64,000 bases of DNA from Bacillota bacterium (GCA_040880305.1 JBBDIP010000059.1:226-64225); one strand, 5' to 3'. Counted from the stretch's first letter, positions 9,538 to 14,937 are shown. The notes: a model not told the origin generated them from the letters alone. Program-made: numbers and translations.

Positions 9538-11289
9538 ATGAGCGTTTCTGGGATTCGCGGTCTTAGGACGAAGGGATTGCCTTCTTCCTTCTGGTCGCTA
9601 CTTACCATGCAGTTCAAAGTCGAATACGGGCAGCGTGGCATGGCCGAGAAACTTGGCCTGGGCCGCAAGTCGCGGCAAGCGTGGCTCTACCTGGGTTTGA
9701 TGGTGATGGCGTTTGTGCCGCTCATGGGTTTTCTTTACCAGATGGGGGACAGCATAGCAGCCCAGTCTGTGGCCATCGCCCAGCCGGGGCTCCCTGTCAT
9801 CGTCGCGGTAATGATGGGCCAGTTCCTAGTGTTCTTCATCGGGATAAGCGCCCTCATGTCCACGCTCTACTACGCGACCGATCTGGAGATGCTGCAGGCT
9901 ATGCCGCTTACAGGCCGGCAGATCCTGGGGGCCAAGGTCCTCATCGCCTATGTGGCTCAGCTCATCTTCTCGTCTGTCATCGCGATCCCGTTCCTCGTCC
10001 CTTTGGGTCTTAGGCTCGGCAGCCCGCTGTTCTGGGTGTTGGCAGCGCTGGTCAACCTGGTGATCCCCGCGATCCCGCTGGCGCTCGCGCTATTGTTCAC
10101 TATACTCATCATGCGCGGCACCAAAGGCTTCCGACACCGCGATATGTTCCGGGTCGTCTTCGGACTTGCGTTCTTCCTGGTCATCATGGCGTTCCAGTTC
10201 TTCAACTCGAGCATGGTCACGAAAGGCCCCGAGGAGATCATGAGGGCGCTCACGCAGCCCAACGGGCTGGTGCAGATGGCGGCCGGATACTATCCGCCGC
10301 TCAAGTGGGCGGCCTGGGCGCTGACAGGTTGGGCGACCGGTACCGGTCTCATCGGGACCGTGGCATTCTTGGGCGGATCCGTGGCTGCCTTGCTGGCGGT
10401 GGCGACTGTCGCCCAGGGATGGTTCCTCGGTGGCCTCGGCAAGGACGTGAGGACGGCGGGATCTGGTAGGACAGCAGGGACTGTCGGGACCCACTCCAGA
10501 CGCCACAACGCAGCGTCCGAGGGATCCGGGTCGGTTAGCGGTCTGTTCTCGCATCCCAGGGACCCGTCCGTCGCAGTAACGTTCCGCGACCACTGGGTCC
10601 TGACTCGCACACCCAATTTCCTTCTGGTGGTGCTGACCAACCTGGCCATTATCCCGATAATGTGGGTCTTCGGCGCCGTTGGGGGAGGGGAGCTGCGCAT
10701 GCTCATCGGCGGCTTTGCCGGGGCCTCTATCGACGCGCTGGTGCTGATAATGATAGCTGCTCAGGGCGGATTGGCCTCGATGAACCAGGTCTCTTCGACC
10801 TCCATATCGCGCGAGGGCGGCACGTTCTGGCTCAGCAAGATGATCCCCGTGCCTGCCAGAACGCAAGTGCGTGGGAAGCTGCGGTACTCGATGCTGGTAG
10901 CGGCAGTGCAACTGGCGACCCTGCTGGTGTCGGCTGCGATGTTGTTTAGGGTGGACCTCTACCATCTGGCCGTCGTCGCGGTGTTGGGGCTGCTGGTTTC
11001 GTGGCCGGTCAGCGCCATCTGCCTCATCAACGACCTATACAGCCCGCGATTGTCCTGGACCGAACCACACCAGGCGATGAAGGGCAACTTCGCGACGCTG
11101 GGTGCCATGTTGTTGTCCGCGGTCTACCTGTTCGTTGGCGGTTTCGTCGTAAGGATGATCTACAAGGCAGGGCTCGGCGGGGTACCGTTGTACCTGGTCG
11201 TGGCCGCGATTGCGGCGGCTTCCGGCTTCGCTCTGCAGAAGTACATGGAGAACTTGGCCGGACCGAGATACGAGGCGATTGAGGCGTAG
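9538..11289 (+). CDS. polytopic membrane protein, putative permease partner of the upstream ABC ATPase
   Basis: 583 aa. Two blocks of hydrophobic helices separated by a Gly/Ser/Arg-rich cytoplasmic loop. Starts 38 nt after the ATPase gene. No named family recognised. Confidence 0.6.
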   Translation: MSVSGIRGLRTKGLPSSFWSLLTMQFKVEYGQRGMAEKLGLGRKSRQAWLYLGLMVMAFVPLMGFLYQMGDSIAAQSVAIAQPGLPVIVAVMMGQFLVFFIGISALMSTLYYATDLEMLQAMPLTGRQILGAKVLIAYVAQLIFSSVIAIPFLVPLGLRLGSPLFWVLAALVNLVIPAIPLALALLFTILIMRGTKGFRHRDMFRVVFGLAFFLVIMAFQFFNSSMVTKGPEEIMRALTQPNGLVQMAAGYYPPLKWAAWALTGWATGTGLIGTVAFLGGSVAALLAVATVAQGWFLGGLGKDVRTAGSGRTAGTVGTHSRRHNAASEGSGSVSGLFSHPRDPSVAVTFRDHWVLTRTPNFLLVVLTNLAIIPIMWVFGAVGGGELRMLIGGFAGASIDALVLIMIAAQGGLASMNQVSSTSISREGGTFWLSKMIPVPARTQVRGKLRYSMLVAAVQLATLLVSAAMLFRVDLYHLAVVAVLGLLVSWPVSAICLINDLYSPRLSWTEPHQAMKGNFATLGAMLLSAVYLFVGGFVVRMIYKAGLGGVPLYLVVAAIAAASGFALQKYMENLAGPRYEAIEA

Positions 11290-11320
11290 GGGAAGGGAAA
11301 CTGATGGCGGATCGAGGTCT

Positions 11321-11397
11321 GTTGACATAACGACTTTACTGCCTGTTATATAGGCACTGGTTGTTCGCTACGTCTCAATTATCGGTGTTATGTAGAC
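11321..11397 (+). repeat. 77-nt inverted-repeat element, copy A
   Basis: Left arm GTTGACATAAC (11321-11331), internal hairpin TGCCT-7nt-AGGCA (11340-11356), TTATCG box (11379-11384), right arm GTTATGTAGAC (11387-11397). Confidence 0.7.
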
Positions 11398-11419
11398 CCG
11401 ATCTGCCACTAGATGCATA

Positions 11420-11439
11420 TTATCGAGACTTATGTTAAC
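11420..11439 (+). repeat. partial third copy (right half only) of the inverted-repeat element
   Basis: TTATCGagaCTTATGTTAAC. The preceding tgccACTAGAtGC also aligns with copy B's ggcACTAGAcGC. Confidence 0.5.
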
Positions 11440-11476
11440 TCGGAGCGAGGAAGTCGACCAAACGCAGCCCCGGTCG

Positions 11477-11553
11477 GTTGACATAACGCGTCCAGTGCCT
11501 ATCTCGTGGGCACTAGACGCCTCCAACGTCCTAGTTATCGATGTTATGTTGAC
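11477..11553 (+). repeat. 77-nt inverted-repeat element, copy B
   Basis: Left arm GTTGACATAAC (11477-11487), internal hairpin AGTGCC-9nt-GGCACT (11494-11514), TTATCG box (11535-11540), right arm GTTATGTTGAC (11543-11553). Same length and layout as copy A, 156 nt downstream. Confidence 0.7.
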
Positions 11554-11684
11554 TCGGCTCGCCCGCGAAACTCCGCACGACCGCGAGGCTGCGCACGTCC
11601 GAGAAACTGCACTCGCCTGACTCTTCCCGGCAGGAATCCCGCCATCGCTTATCCAAACCCGATCCTCGGGGAGCATAGGGGCAA

Positions 11685-11745
11685 GGGATCTACGGAATCA
11701 AGGAATCGAGGAATCGAGGGAATCACAGGAGTCGCAGAAATCAAC
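11685..11745 (+). repeat. seven tandem degenerate 8-9-nt repeats (GGAATC-type) in the leader of the M20D gene
   Basis: GGGATCTAC GGAATCAA GGAATCGA GGAATCGAG GGAATCACA GGAGTCGCA GAAATCAAC. Ends 5 nt before the RBS AAGGGGG (11751-11757) of the TTG-start ORF at 11766. Confidence 0.8.
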
Positions 11746-11765
11746 AACACAAGGGGGTCACGCTG

Positions 11766-12965
11766 TTGGAGACTTTGAGAGCCGCGAAAGCCATCGAGAA
11801 TGACATCATCAGCCTGCGCAGGGAGATCCACATGCACCCCGAGCTCGGGCTCGAGACGCCCCATACCTCCGCCTTGGTGGCGAAGGTGTTGAGGGACCTT
11901 GGGATTGAAGTGAGGGAGCACGTCGGCGGTCACGGCGTCGTCGGGTTGCTAAGAGGCGAGGGCCCTGGTCACGGTCTGGGCGACGGCCTGACCATCGCGC
12001 TTCGGGCTGACATGGACGCCCTCCCGATCACAGAGGAGACGGGCAAGGAGTACTGCTCAAAGATTCCGGGGTTGATGCACGCGTGCGGGCACGACGCCCA
12101 CACTGCTATCCTGCTCGGCACGGCCAAAGTGCTGTCGGACATGCGTAAGGAATTTGCCGGCAACGTGAAGTTCATCTTCCAGCCCGGCGAGGAGGGCGCA
12201 GGCGGCGCGAGGCCAATGATAAAGGACGGCTGTCTCGAGAATCCCAGGCCCGACATGATTTTGGGCGCGCACGTGGGATCGCTGTGGTCAGTCGGATCAG
12301 GGCAGATCGGCGTAAGACGTGGCCCGCTCATGGCGGCCACCGATCGCTTCACCGTGACAGTGCGGGGTAAAGGCGGTCACGGGGCGGCGCCGCATATGTC
12401 GGTGGACCCTGTCGTGATCGCCGCTCAAATCGTGGTGATGCTGCAGACCATCGTGTCCAGGGAAATCGATCCCCTCACCCCGGCAGTGGTCACCATCGGG
12501 ATGATCAAGGCGGGCACCGCCAACAACATCATCCCTGAGACCTGCGAGATCCGCGGCACGGTCCGCTACCTGGACCGCAGCTTCGCCAAGGTCATCCCCC
12601 AGAGGATCAAGGAGATCGCGGAAGGCACCGCAGGGGCGATGCGCGGTCAGGCTGTCCTGGAGTACTTCTACGGGTACCCGCCTGTGGTGAACGACCCGGC
12701 CGCGACCGATTTCCTGGCCAATTCGGCCGCGTCGGTGGTCGGCGCCGACAACATAAGGCAGGTCCAGCCCACGATGGGCGGGGAGGATATGTCGTACTAC
12801 CTGGAGCAGGTCCCCGGCACTTTCTTTGGCATTGGGACCGCCACCCCAGGTGAAGGCACTGATTTCCCCCACCATCACCCGAAGTTCGACGTGGATGAGG
12901 AAGTGCTGCACGTGGGAGTCGCGGTCTTCTCCCAGGCGTGTCTGGACTTTCTGAAAGGTCGGTAG
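11766..12965 (+). CDS. M20D-family amidohydrolase (N-acyl-amino acid / hippurate hydrolase-like)
   Basis: 399 aa, TTG start. ..LRREIHMHPELG.., ALRADMDALP, MHACGHDAH metal-ligand motifs. Confidence 0.85.
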   Translation: METLRAAKAIENDIISLRREIHMHPELGLETPHTSALVAKVLRDLGIEVREHVGGHGVVGLLRGEGPGHGLGDGLTIALRADMDALPITEETGKEYCSKIPGLMHACGHDAHTAILLGTAKVLSDMRKEFAGNVKFIFQPGEEGAGGARPMIKDGCLENPRPDMILGAHVGSLWSVGSGQIGVRRGPLMAATDRFTVTVRGKGGHGAAPHMSVDPVVIAAQIVVMLQTIVSREIDPLTPAVVTIGMIKAGTANNIIPETCEIRGTVRYLDRSFAKVIPQRIKEIAEGTAGAMRGQAVLEYFYGYPPVVNDPAATDFLANSAASVVGADNIRQVQPTMGGEDMSYYLEQVPGTFFGIGTATPGEGTDFPHHHPKFDVDEEVLHVGVAVFSQACLDFLKGR

Positions 12966-13043: not shown

Positions 13044-13073
13044 CTGGTAGGAGCCTTGTTGGGAGGGTGGCCG

Positions 13074-13964
13074 GTGCAGGAACTGAGAGTCCATCCTGAC
13101 GATGTTGTTGGGTTGACTGAATCCGTAGTGTTCCAAGGCGATGCTGCGGAGATACTCAAGCGGGTTCCGGCGCGGTCTGTACAATGCGTGGTGACATCTC
13201 CCCCATACTGGAGTCTCAGAGACTACCACGTGCCAGGGCAAATCGGTCTTGAGAAGACGCTCGATGGCTATGTCGCCAACCTTGTGAAGGCATTCAGCGA
13301 GGTACGACGAGTCCTCCGCGCCGACGGGGTCATGTGGCTCAACATTGGCGACTCCTACACGAGCGGCGGAAGGACTTGGCGCGCTCCGGACAAGAAGAAC
13401 CCGGCCAGGGCCATGTCCGTGCGTCCAGATACCCCGAAAGGTCTCAAGCCCAAGGACCTAATAGGCGTGCCATGGAGGATCGCGTTCGCGCTTCAGGAGG
13501 ACGGTTGGTACCTGCGTTCCGACACGATCTGGGAGAAGCCGAACGCACAGCCAGAGAGCGTAAAAGATCGACCCACAAAGTGCCACGAGTACATCTTCCT
13601 ACTGAGCAAATCCGAGAAGTACCACTACGATTGGGCAGCCATCGTTGAGCCGAACGGTCGCAATAAACGCAGTGTATGGCATGTGAACACACAGCCGTTC
13701 ACCGACGCGCATTTTGCCACCTTCCCGGAAAAACTCATTGAGCCCTGCATCCTTGCGGGCAGCCGACCAGGTGATTTCGTTCTCGACCCTTTCTTCGGAT
13801 CCGGAACAGTAGGGGTTGTCTGCGGGCAATTGCAGCGGAAGTACATTGGGATTGAACTGAACCCCGATTACATCGAGATCGCCGAGAAGCGATTGGGTGG
13901 GCTACATAGCCCGATGTTCATTAAGACGATCTGTCTTGCCGGGGGTGAGCAGATCGCATTCTGA
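13074..13964 (+). CDS. beta-class DNA amino-methyltransferase, probably N4-cytosine (type II R-M, M subunit)
   Basis: Motif IV TSPPY near the N-terminus precedes motif I DPFFGSGT near the C-terminus. SPPY rather than D/NPPY favours m4C. I place the start at GTG 13074 (RBS GGGAGGG 13061-13067); the track starts at TTG 13056. Confidence 0.88.
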   Translation: MQELRVHPDDVVGLTESVVFQGDAAEILKRVPARSVQCVVTSPPYWSLRDYHVPGQIGLEKTLDGYVANLVKAFSEVRRVLRADGVMWLNIGDSYTSGGRTWRAPDKKNPARAMSVRPDTPKGLKPKDLIGVPWRIAFALQEDGWYLRSDTIWEKPNAQPESVKDRPTKCHEYIFLLSKSEKYHYDWAAIVEPNGRNKRSVWHVNTQPFTDAHFATFPEKLIEPCILAGSRPGDFVLDPFFGSGTVGVVCGQLQRKYIGIELNPDYIEIAEKRLGGLHSPMFIKTICLAGGEQIAF

Positions 13965-14937
13965 TCAGCCAGCCGCAATAGTCCTCCCAAGTGTGGAACC
14001 CCAGATTCGTTTCAGTCAGGCTTTGGACGCTATGCGACAGGAATGCCTGATGAATGCCCTACTGGAGACCGTTCGGACTCTCAGTGTGAGGCTCATAGAC
14101 CTCGAACTGTCGGGTTTTGTGCCAGAAGAGAGGCTCAGGGAGATGGCCGCCCTGGGGCTTAGGGCCGAGCTGCTGTATCCCGTTCCTTGCCTGCTGGCGG
14201 CTAAGCCCAGGCTGCTCGCGTACTACCGCATGCTGCTCGGATTCTCCGGGAAGGAGTTCTACCGTGCCTCCACAGGCCTGACCAGCTTCCAGCGCATGGA
14301 GACTGCCGGCACTGTGGACGATCGACAACTGAGCCGTCTTCCGGATCTTTGCCGTGCCTTTATCGTGGAGGCCGAAACGTTAGTCGATGGCGTGGGGATC
14401 GCCCGGATCTCGCGGGAATTTCTAGACGACCTGACCCTATTGACTCTCGGGCCGTCCCTTCGCGGCGGAAGTAATGTCAGAAGAGGTGCAGGCGCCACGG
14501 AACTCGTGCGCAATATGATAGTAGACCTGCTGGGCAAGCACATTGTGGCTCAGTCGCCCAGGGAGATTTCTATCTTGAACGCTGCCGGGCGGAAGGTCTT
14601 CATTGGTTTCGCGTCTGACCCGGATGTGACCGTTCGGGAGGAACTCCAGCCTGGCATCTACCGCAATGTCGCGGCCATAGAGATAAAGGGCGGAACTGAT
14701 GCTTCCAATGTCCACAACCGCATAGGCGAAGCCGAGAAGAGCCACCAGAAGGCCAGGAATGCCGGTTTCACCGAGTGCTGGACGATAGTGAACGTGGATA
14801 GTCTGGACCTGGAAATGGCCAGACGGGAATCTCCCAGCACAGACCGTTTTTACCTGCTCAGCATGCTCATCTCAAAGGACTCCCAGGAATGCCAGGAGTT
14901 CCGAAGCAGGCTTGCCAGCATCGCCGGCATCCCCTAA
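13897..14937 (+). CDS. putative type II restriction endonuclease (PD-(D/E)xK)
   Basis: Overlaps or abuts the methyltransferase 3' end. FASDPDV..(~20 aa)..AAIEIKGG fits a D...ExK nuclease core. From memory it resembles XcyI/Cfr9I-type (CCCGGG) enzymes, unverified. Start is uncertain (13897, GTG 13993 or ATG 14032). Confidence 0.6.
   Translation: MGYIARCSLRRSVLPGVSRSHSDQPAAIVLPSVEPQIRFSQALDAMRQECLMNALLETVRTLSVRLIDLELSGFVPEERLREMAALGLRAELLYPVPCLLAAKPRLLAYYRMLLGFSGKEFYRASTGLTSFQRMETAGTVDDRQLSRLPDLCRAFIVEAETLVDGVGIARISREFLDDLTLLTLGPSLRGGSNVRRGAGATELVRNMIVDLLGKHIVAQSPREISILNAAGRKVFIGFASDPDVTVREELQPGIYRNVAAIEIKGGTDASNVHNRIGEAEKSHQKARNAGFTECWTIVNVDSLDLEMARRESPSTDRFYLLSMLISKDSQECQEFRSRLASIAGIP

Follow-up and report, generated by a model that had tools for sequence, protein, structure and literature searches.

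The 64,000-nt window analyzed here (positions 226-64225 of contig C59 of an uncultured Bacillota genome of 1.74 Mb in 61 contigs, 84% complete; coordinates given without a contig are those of the window) carries a ~233-bp non-coding composite of repeats in the 476-nt spacer between an ABC_tran_2 membrane protein gene (9538-11289) and an M20 amidohydrolase gene (11766-12965; M20D below). On balance, its sequence favors a reading as a species-specific mosaic that joins half-sites for XerD, one of the proteins that act at the chromosomal dimer-resolution site dif, to a palindrome like those of the repetitive extragenic palindrome (REP) families; it would be a DNA-level element for protein docking and recombination, and not an RNA or a leader. 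An independent Logan contig, SRR27977663, reproduces the locus with every base identical. Exact-protein look-ups of the window M20D and ABC ATPase genes returned the identical contig alone, and that of the M20 peptidase gene beside another family member (on contig C12) returned no record.

The initial annotation had described two 77-nt elements in this spacer, and these are parts of the single composite. The sequence confirms both copies (A, 11321-11397; B, 11477-11553), their layout of GTTGACATAAC, N6-7, a palindrome with a TGCC/GGCA core, ~28 nt, TTATCG, NN and GTTATGTnGAC, and a copy of the right half alone at 11420-11439 (TTATCGAGACTTATGTTAAC). Copy A thus reads GTTGACATAAC-GACTTT-ACTGCCTGTTATATAGGCACT-...-TTATCG-GT-GTTATGTAGAC. 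The parts of the composite are as follows.

11321-11553, plus strand: whole composite (unit A, solo right-type site, unit B); at least four full family members have matching box order and spacing
11321-11331, minus strand: arm 1, GTTGACATAAC, the reverse complement of the XerD-arm box TTATGTCAAC; it matches the dif XerD half at 10 of 11 positions, the outermost base alone differing
11338-11358, no strand: palindrome A, ACTGCCTGT-TAT-ATAGGCACT, a variant with an uncompensated C-C mismatch common to three "A-type" units; its centre is 22.5 bp from that of arm 1
11381-11397, plus strand: unit A right-type site, TTATCG-GT-GTTATGTAGAC (arm 2), its centre 44.5 bp from the palindrome centre
11420-11439, plus strand: solo right-type site, TTATCG-AGAC-TTATGTTAAC (arm 3), 42-43 bp after arm 2 in four of four composites
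11477-11487, minus strand: arm 4, GTTGACATAAC; the centres of arms 3 and 4 are 47 bp apart here
11494-11514, no strand: palindrome B, AGTGCCTAT-CTC-GTGGGCACT, read from the sequence
11537-11553, plus strand: unit B right-type site, TTATCG-AT-GTTATGTTGAC (arm 5), read from the sequence

The arms, the palindrome and the chromosomal dif site

A search for dif-like 28-mers in this genome located ACGTCCTATAA-TAGTTA-TTATGTCAACT at C11:33-60, identical to the dif of Bacillus subtilis at 23 of its 28 positions. With up to three mismatches allowed, 35 of 41 related genomes have exactly one match to the pattern ACGTCCTATAA-N6-TTATGTNAACT, and a reversed control has almost none; the pattern therefore behaves as the chromosomal dif. 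The right half of dif is its XerD (RipX) side and the better conserved half among bacteria (PMC5357621, PMC2731167). It is this half that the arms of the composite family resemble, at 10 or 11 of 11 positions, and they have the form of the TTATGTnAAnT-type arm of Xer sites. The bases TTATGT are invariant in all of the ~25 arms (consensus TTATGT-N-R-AC-Y), and the positions that vary are outer ones, equivalent to positions 24-25 of dif. The first of these, position 24, also differs among the dif sites of the relatives, and it is one of two outer XerD-arm positions that have been called highly variable (PMC2731167). The chance that the ends would match one given 11-mer at 10 or 11 positions is roughly 1e-5. 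Three tyrosine recombinases are encoded in the genome: a XerD equivalog (C49, 306 aa), which scores 404 bits for TIGR02225 where the curated cut-off is 330, a XerC/CodV-like protein (C27, 324 aa) with topA and hslU as gene neighbors, and a phage-type integrase close to the end of a contig. The dif identity of the arms is absent from the initial annotation.

The XerC half has no such counterpart. Compared with the XerC arm, the left halves of the family sites score 3-8 of 11 (mean 5.1), and random positions most often give 4. The only XerC-like left half in the family is ACGTCCTAGTT (8/11), which lies 7 nt 5' of arm 5 in unit B; complete XerC-plus-XerD sites were accordingly rejected, since the left halves are poor except for this one at 7-nt spacing. 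At the palindrome-type sites, the proximal half of the palindrome, (G/A)ATAGGCACTG, supplies the 11 bp at the position of the XerC arm, at a distance of exactly 6 bp from the XerD arm.

The second conserved box, AGTGCC-N9-GGCACT, is a repeated 21-bp element in its own right. About 37 such palindromes are present, all intergenic, in the composites, in 52-nt tandem arrays and singly. In the arrays it takes the form CAGTGCCAAT-N3-ATTGGCACTG at the head of each unit, so that the 52-nt repeat is a dispersed family with four array loci and two solo units:

C25:14296-14640: 52-nt tandem array, each unit headed by the palindrome
C43:6540-6790: 52-nt tandem array, as above
C43:67920-68105: 52-nt tandem array, as above
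C44:50200-50510: 52-nt tandem array, as above
C49:14305: solo palindrome unit
C61:55057: solo palindrome unit

The controlling inverted repeat of chaperone expression (CIRCE, the HrcA operator, TTAGCACTC-N9-GAGTGCTAA) was considered for this palindrome and rejected because the half-sites are everted and carry an extra G; canonical CIRCE copies are present elsewhere in the genome, at C52:168 and C42:9515.

Three further observations concern dif and single arms. The probable chromosomal dif (ACGTCCTATAATAGTTATTATGTCAACT, C11:33-60) lies only 32 nt from its contig end, and an extra XerD arm, TTATGTCAACT, stands 56 nt 3' of it, which the same-genus genome G001 does not have; a repeat or an integrated element may lie concealed in the contig break beside dif. 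In three species of the genus (C41:10358, G002:C7:409 and G001:C11:517918), a long gene-free stretch holds a solo XerD-arm word in the conserved context CTACTTCnGnGGCAATnTTATGTCAACTCTTTGCC, which could be a conserved XerD site, a promoter or a piece of an RNA gene. An enrichment of arms in the relatives, at first sight a sign of XerD-only sites, was not relied on, as several of them stand in promoter-like contexts.

Family geometry and the RNA and leader readings

Word and profile searches of the contigs, followed by alignment, recovered further copies, and the idea of a multi-copy family put forward in the initial annotation is borne out: the order unit, half copy, unit recurs at other loci of the same genome far beyond chance. 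The common layout is an arm (GGTTKACATAAC), 6-7 nt, the palindrome AGTGCC-N9-GGCACT, ~28 nt and TTATCG-NN-arm, then a solo TTATCG-N3-4-arm and a second 77-nt unit. The loci are:

C59:11546-11778: composite, the window locus
C12:38029-38271: composite, between the convergent genes ileS and M20 peptidase
C52:2303-2556, minus strand: composite, after groEL, with a further module at C52:2732-2776
C48:560-970, minus strand: composite, between convergent genes; the box order and spacing of the window composite recur over C48:560-777
C13:18796-18853: partial copy, 5' of tadA and dnaX

All composites are intergenic, every one lies beside the 3' end of at least one gene, and two of the four lie between convergent genes. 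The other copies have unrelated genes as neighbors (ileS, groEL, an ABC ATPase), and the composite shares the direction of the upstream gene at C59 and C12 and has the opposite direction at C52. Each composite holds two palindromes and five arms, the latter as two inverted pairs and one solo arm. Copy number is very low, with ~10 modules in addition to ~25 palindromes in tandem arrays.

The distances between boxes are nearly constant. Arm and palindrome centres are 22.5 bp apart in 10 of 11 modules, and the palindrome-to-next-arm distance is 44.5 bp in four units and 43.5 and 56.5 bp in the other two; arms 2 and 3 are 42-43 bp apart, centre to centre, in all four composites, and the six full units measure 77, 77, 77, 77, 76 and 77 nt. 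Within these six units the boxes are 85% identical and the spacers 37% (random expectation 26%), and none of 5000 permutations reached the observed contrast between boxes and spacers. This combination indicates that the boxes and their geometry are constrained and that the spacer sequence is free; selection appears to act on the boxes and on the spacing. The distances between the centres of arms 3 and 4 across the family (47, 47, 47, 57, 57 or 68 bp) step by about one helical turn, which is suggestive only of helical phasing, as there are three length classes and these may reflect shared descent.

A small hairpin, CCRCC-N3-GGYGG, directly abuts several arms (C12:38016-38028, C52:2557-2575 and C52:2777-2790, and also L090:~385-410). 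Three contigs of other assemblies (L055, L051 and L052) end shortly 3' of the M20 peptidase gene. The end of L055, whose strain is similar to that of this genome, falls ~20 nt from the start of the C12 composite; a repeat that interrupts short-read assemblies would have this effect, and assembly gaps may thus conceal further copies.

The initial annotation had proposed that the units may be transcribed structured RNAs, or a cis-regulatory leader for M20D, and had pointed to a TTGACA hexamer in the left arm as a possible -35 element. Pairing was counted on the six full units (arms, positions 1-11 against 67-77; palindrome, 18-26 against 30-38). It is correct that the arms of copy B pair at 11 of 11 positions on the plus strand only if two G-U pairs are allowed; those of copy A include one wobble and one G-A mismatch. 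The G-U wobbles, read earlier as a hint of transcription, lie on the plus strand in unit B and on the opposite strand in the C12 unit B, so the argument holds for the window copies and does not generalize. Similarly, the statement that pairing is kept through different base pairs is true of A against B; across the six units no pair has changed on both sides, and shuffled controls contain more two-sided changes than the real alignment, so that there is no covariation among these units. Column 4/74 is unpaired in four of six units and column 24/32 in three of six, the three "A-type" units have their C-C mismatch in common, and the inner palindrome positions show T-A, T-G and C-A combinations, never C-G.

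Compared with shuffled sequences, units A and B do fold more stably on the plus strand (z = -1.8 and -5.4), and the composite does lie 5' of M20D. The minus strand, however, folds about as well (z = -3.8 and -3.6), and no Rfam family was found for 11000-12000 at a permissive threshold, which returned noise only. The TTGACA hexamer is a part of the reverse complement of the dif XerD arm and has no -10 partner; its TTG is not conserved among the arms (GTTGAC, GTTTAC, GTTAAC, GTCTAC, GTCAAC and GTAGAC all occur), and its promoter-like look is thus a by-product of the dif arm. A scan of 11200-11850 gave no sigma-70-type promoter, and its single "terminator-like" match is palindrome A, which has no real T tract. 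A small RNA family is further opposed by the mixed orientation of the copies relative to genes. A leader of M20D is contradicted by the other copies, which stand by unrelated genes and in some cases after convergent ones, and by the absence of the element from the same spacer in a ~92% identical sister strain and in four congeners or family members, all of which retain the ~140 nt of spacer nearest the gene. The RNA and leader readings are thus largely refuted, and a structured small RNA, an M20D leader or a portable promoter with TTGACA as its -35 element carries hardly any probability.

Absence from relatives, and apparent gain or loss at arms

None of 40 relatives, two of them from the same genus, has the arm-plus-palindrome module, and its pattern has no match in 185,579 GTDB species genomes and JGI metagenomes. 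A shorter arm-plus-half-palindrome pattern matched 34 times in IMG/VR, and none of these matches has the partner palindrome half, so they are chance matches; a plasmid search with the composite itself found no match. In the relatives, the ABC_tran_2-M20D spacer measures ~250 nt (G001), 125 nt (G002), 120 nt (G003) and 45 nt (G004), in every case without the composite. G001 and G002 share with the window spacer only a gene-proximal block, GCTTATCCAAnCCCG..GGGGAGCATA. G001 has no composite at the C12, C52 and C13 loci either (four loci in total); it has a 44-nt tandem repeat and extra transporter genes there instead.

A sister strain, here called E (~92% nucleotide identity; contig L045 from ENA ERZ27297473 and L046 from Logan ERR6862853), was compared locus by locus. 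It has no composite at any of the three orthologous loci recovered, and has degenerate solo arms at two of them. At the C59 locus the spacer is 190 nt long instead of 476 nt, which divides the window spacer as follows.

11322-11627 (approximate limits), no strand: segment without counterpart in the sister strain, from the spacer comparison
11628-11765, plus strand: proximal spacer, GCTTATCCAAACCCG..GGGGAGCATAG followed by GGAATC repeats, kept in the sister strain and in the same-genus G001 and G002

In strain E the first of these gives way to ~26 nt, AGTTACGTCTCCATAAATAGGCACT, interpretable as a degenerate arm (GTCTCCATAA; other strand TTATGGAGAC) abutting the half palindrome ATAGGCACT. At the C52 locus there is a clean 494-nt difference, the right end of which is the inner edge of an arm with a 3-nt TTA microhomology, and a single degenerate arm, CTATGTGAACC, remains in strain E, flanked by the small hairpin described above. 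At the C12 locus the spacer of strain E is filled by a different palindromic repeat, TGATGCTCTGAGCATCA. The arm remnants at these junctions mark points where segments come and go, and the arms thus appear to be points of segment gain and loss between strains. Gain by the window lineage is more parsimonious in the number of events; the remnants in strain E and the near-random spacers fit an older family under deletion in that strain.

The groEL spacer of a related but more distant species (81% amino acid identity in the adjacent HlyD-like gene) contains two perfect direct copies of ATTATGTAAACT, 264 nt apart. These copies of the XerD arm bracket 252 nt in the groEL-HlyD spacer (L092:1542-1817, ENA ERZ9284063; the same in L093), and the bracketed stretch looks like a small insert flanked by attachment sites. 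The convergent ileS-M20 peptidase spacer differs in its repeat from lineage to lineage and is a hot spot for repeat turnover: the sister strain has one of ~130 nt, periodic and with TGATGCTCTGAGCATCA palindromes (L053:3929-4722), G001 has the 44-nt tandem repeat (L040:770-930), and this genome has the XerD-arm composite.

The proximal spacer, 11628-11765, is probably the true promoter and leader of M20D and lies outside the element. Just 5' of the M20D start it contains five or six GGAATC-type repeats with an 8-9-nt period (11684-11740), which are kept in the sister strain; G001, which also has GGAATC-type repeats, carries at this position five copies of a 15-nt unit, GATGGGAATC(G/A)CACA. These repeats may serve as an array of sites for a protein that acts on the leader or promoter, or may form a small satellite. 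Beyond M20D, the window encodes a restriction-modification pair at 13056-14937 (an N6_N4 DNA methylase and an XcyI-family endonuclease), both members of which are present in the sister strain (L045).

Relation to known elements and significance

In form and population behavior, the family most resembles the mosaics formed by REP sequences in bacterial interspersed mosaic elements (BIMEs) or the Neisseria intergenic mosaic elements (NIMEs), and loosely the dif modules of plasmids. In function it most resembles XerD-only sites (XDS), at which XerD docks. REP and BIME sequences (enterobacteria and pseudomonads, with REP-associated tyrosine transposases, RAYTs) and NIMEs (Neisseria, bracketed by dRS3 inverted repeats) share with it palindromic boxes in a mosaic with other conserved motifs, conserved boxes with varying linkers, species specificity, and intergenic sites that are often after 3' ends or between convergent genes. 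Unlike REP and BIME sequences, the present family has a very low copy number and no RAYT was found with it, and its second box is a half-site for the host dif recombinase, which is not described for those elements. Miniature transposable elements with inverted repeats (MITEs) are alike in their short non-coding length, terminal inverted repeats and multiple intergenic copies; they differ in that the family here has neither target-site duplications nor a cognate insertion sequence, is modular inside, and is conserved in its boxes only.

Of the three candidates of the initial annotation, the MITE-like or REP-like mobile repeat alone stands, in modified form. The family is multi-copy, strictly intergenic and species-specific, with inverted arms of 11-13 bp at the unit and composite ends as in MITEs, and a short repeated extragenic palindrome in clusters and mosaics as in REP and BIME sequences; its copies are not uniformly similar, and the nine unit and composite boundaries have no target-site duplications (with offsets of up to 3 nt allowed, flanking direct repeats reach 3 nt at most). 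Some probability, though a minor one, attaches to an ordinary selfish repeat of the REP/BIME or MITE type, moved by a transposase (RAYT/Y1 or DDE) encoded in the unassembled part of the genome, with the likeness to dif incidental or a target preference. The position of the copies by 3' gene ends, the occurrence of the palindrome alone and in 52-nt arrays, a species-specific mosaic like the BIMEs of Escherichia coli, and the breaks of other samples' assemblies at the element are all as such a repeat would have them. It is opposed by the absence of any Y1_Tnp/RAYT match (PF01797) in the 84%-complete genome, where 6 of 14 control genomes were positive, and of any multi-copy insertion sequence in a genome self-BLAST; no arm pair brackets a transposase, and the improbable agreement of the ends with one 11-mer, and arm variation that follows the pattern of the dif XerD arm, also speak against it.

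The pdif-bounded dif modules of Acinetobacter plasmids (PMC6449649, PMC13141974) and the integrative mobile elements exploiting Xer (IMEX) at dif (PMC5357621) are alike in that segments bracketed by Xer-type sites in alternating orientation are gained or lost at those sites, presumably through host Xer enzymes. However, pdif sites are complete 28-bp XerC/XerD sites and their modules are gene-bearing and on plasmids, whereas here half-sites bracket 55-80 bp of non-coding "cargo" at chromosomal loci away from dif. The units might also be relics of the folded attachment regions of single-stranded DNA elements that exploit Xer, like CTXphi attP, in which inverted arms would anneal to a XerD-arm duplex and be left after integration and decay. 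The inverted dif-like half-sites with 55 nt between them and an adjoining unpaired "central" stretch, the stable single-stranded fold of unit B, and the mapping of gain and loss to arms are consistent with this. We nevertheless consider it very improbable, as XerD arms alone would pair and would form no XerC duplex, arm variation is uncompensated (column 4/74 again), the copies are not at dif and carry no cargo, and the searches found no phage or plasmid with the module.

XDS are known from B. subtilis and Staphylococcus aureus as XerD half-sites without a functional XerC half (Karaboja 2021, cited in PMC11840125, PMC11894783). As summarized there, they are single sites confined to the terminus region and part of a conserved chromosome layout, and an artificial array of them is reported to block translocation of the SMC (structural maintenance of chromosomes) complex (PMC11840125, PMC11894783). 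The family sites likewise have a conserved XerD half and a degenerate XerC half; like XDS, they resemble dif but lie outside it, in a member of the Bacillota with both XerC and XerD. In comparison with XDS as described in these accounts, those here form five-arm clusters in both orientations together with a palindrome, and are scattered, restricted to one species and variable between strains. Locus positions were mapped onto the complete relative G004 (2.32 Mb) by a chimeric query of flanking-gene proteins; dif lies at 232 kb, and the M20D, groEL and ABC loci at 544, 1170 and 1922 kb. The orthologous loci are thus ~310, 940 and 630 kb from dif, groEL being ~300 kb from an origin-proximal dnaB-type helicase gene (1466 kb), and in G001 the distances to dif are 78 kb for the ileS locus and 642 kb for M20D. 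Clustering at the terminus was rejected, since the loci are scattered over the chromosome.

These data bear on whether the five-arm clusters are an XDS-like array that serves the host, unloading or stalling Smc-ScpAB or organizing the chromosome, and are kept for the benefit of the cell. The lack of XerC arms as in B. subtilis XDS, the apparent selection on boxes and spacing, and the reported effect of the artificial array would agree with such a role. It is distinctly improbable, however, given loci away from the terminus, arms that point both ways, and the absence of composites from the sister strain and all congeners, which argues that they are not a conserved housekeeping device. With no XerC arm, no position at the terminus, no RAYT gene and no target-site duplication, the family belongs to none of these known groups.

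The favored reading, a mosaic of XerD half-sites and a REP-like palindrome, suggests a mechanism in which the genome-encoded XerD would dock as monomers on the arms, and a second protein, acting as a dimer, would bind the palindrome, or the latter would form a small extruded cruciform. A single nucleoprotein assembly on one face of the DNA would account for the fixed spacing, which is roughly in helical phase, and segments could be gained or lost at the arms by Xer-type site-specific exchange or by recombination between the repeated arms. Both the binding of XerD to the arms and Xer-driven movement of the element are inferred from sequence comparison. Several points weigh against this reading. 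The evidence consists of sequence from metagenome assemblies of one species, and at 84% completeness a cognate transposase or parent element could be missing from the genome. The family sites have no consistent XerC arm, which makes canonical XerCD recombination at them doubtful, and the arms within a unit are inverted, which favors inversion over excision. The complement of the arm holds TTGACA-like hexamers, and some arm-like words in the relatives are simply promoters. Gain in the window lineage and loss in strain E would each fit the comparison; under gain, copy-and-paste does not readily account for spacers that are near-random between copies, and the C59 difference from the sister strain is not one clean event.

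A more speculative extension, which we think unlikely, is that the composites are gene-less cassettes that use the host Xer system, with arrays of XerD half-sites and a palindrome for a partner protein, and are inserted, expanded or deleted at solo XerD-arm sites spread along the chromosome, and that the five-arm clusters could act as roadblocks to Smc-ScpAB away from the terminus. If so, they would be a chromosomal, non-coding counterpart of dif modules and IMEX, and XerD half-sites would be the substrate for a previously undescribed kind of selfish DNA able to reshape chromosome folding.

Intergenic repeats such as REP, BIME, NIME and MITE sequences are common in bacteria, and the proteins that read them are mostly unknown. 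The present family allows one of its two conserved boxes to be linked with a universal host protein, as the box matches the XerD half of the genome's own dimer-resolution site. For annotation, a false lead is removed (the supposed RNA or leader 5' of the amidohydrolase gene), and the 52-nt "minisatellites" of this genome are seen to belong to the palindrome family of the composite. The favored reading predicts XerD on the arms, gain, loss or inversion at the arms, and possibly an effect on SMC translocation. A small, strain-variable repeat family would thereby be tied to the Xer system, whose XerD-only sites were recently found, according to the accounts cited above, to control SMC complexes.

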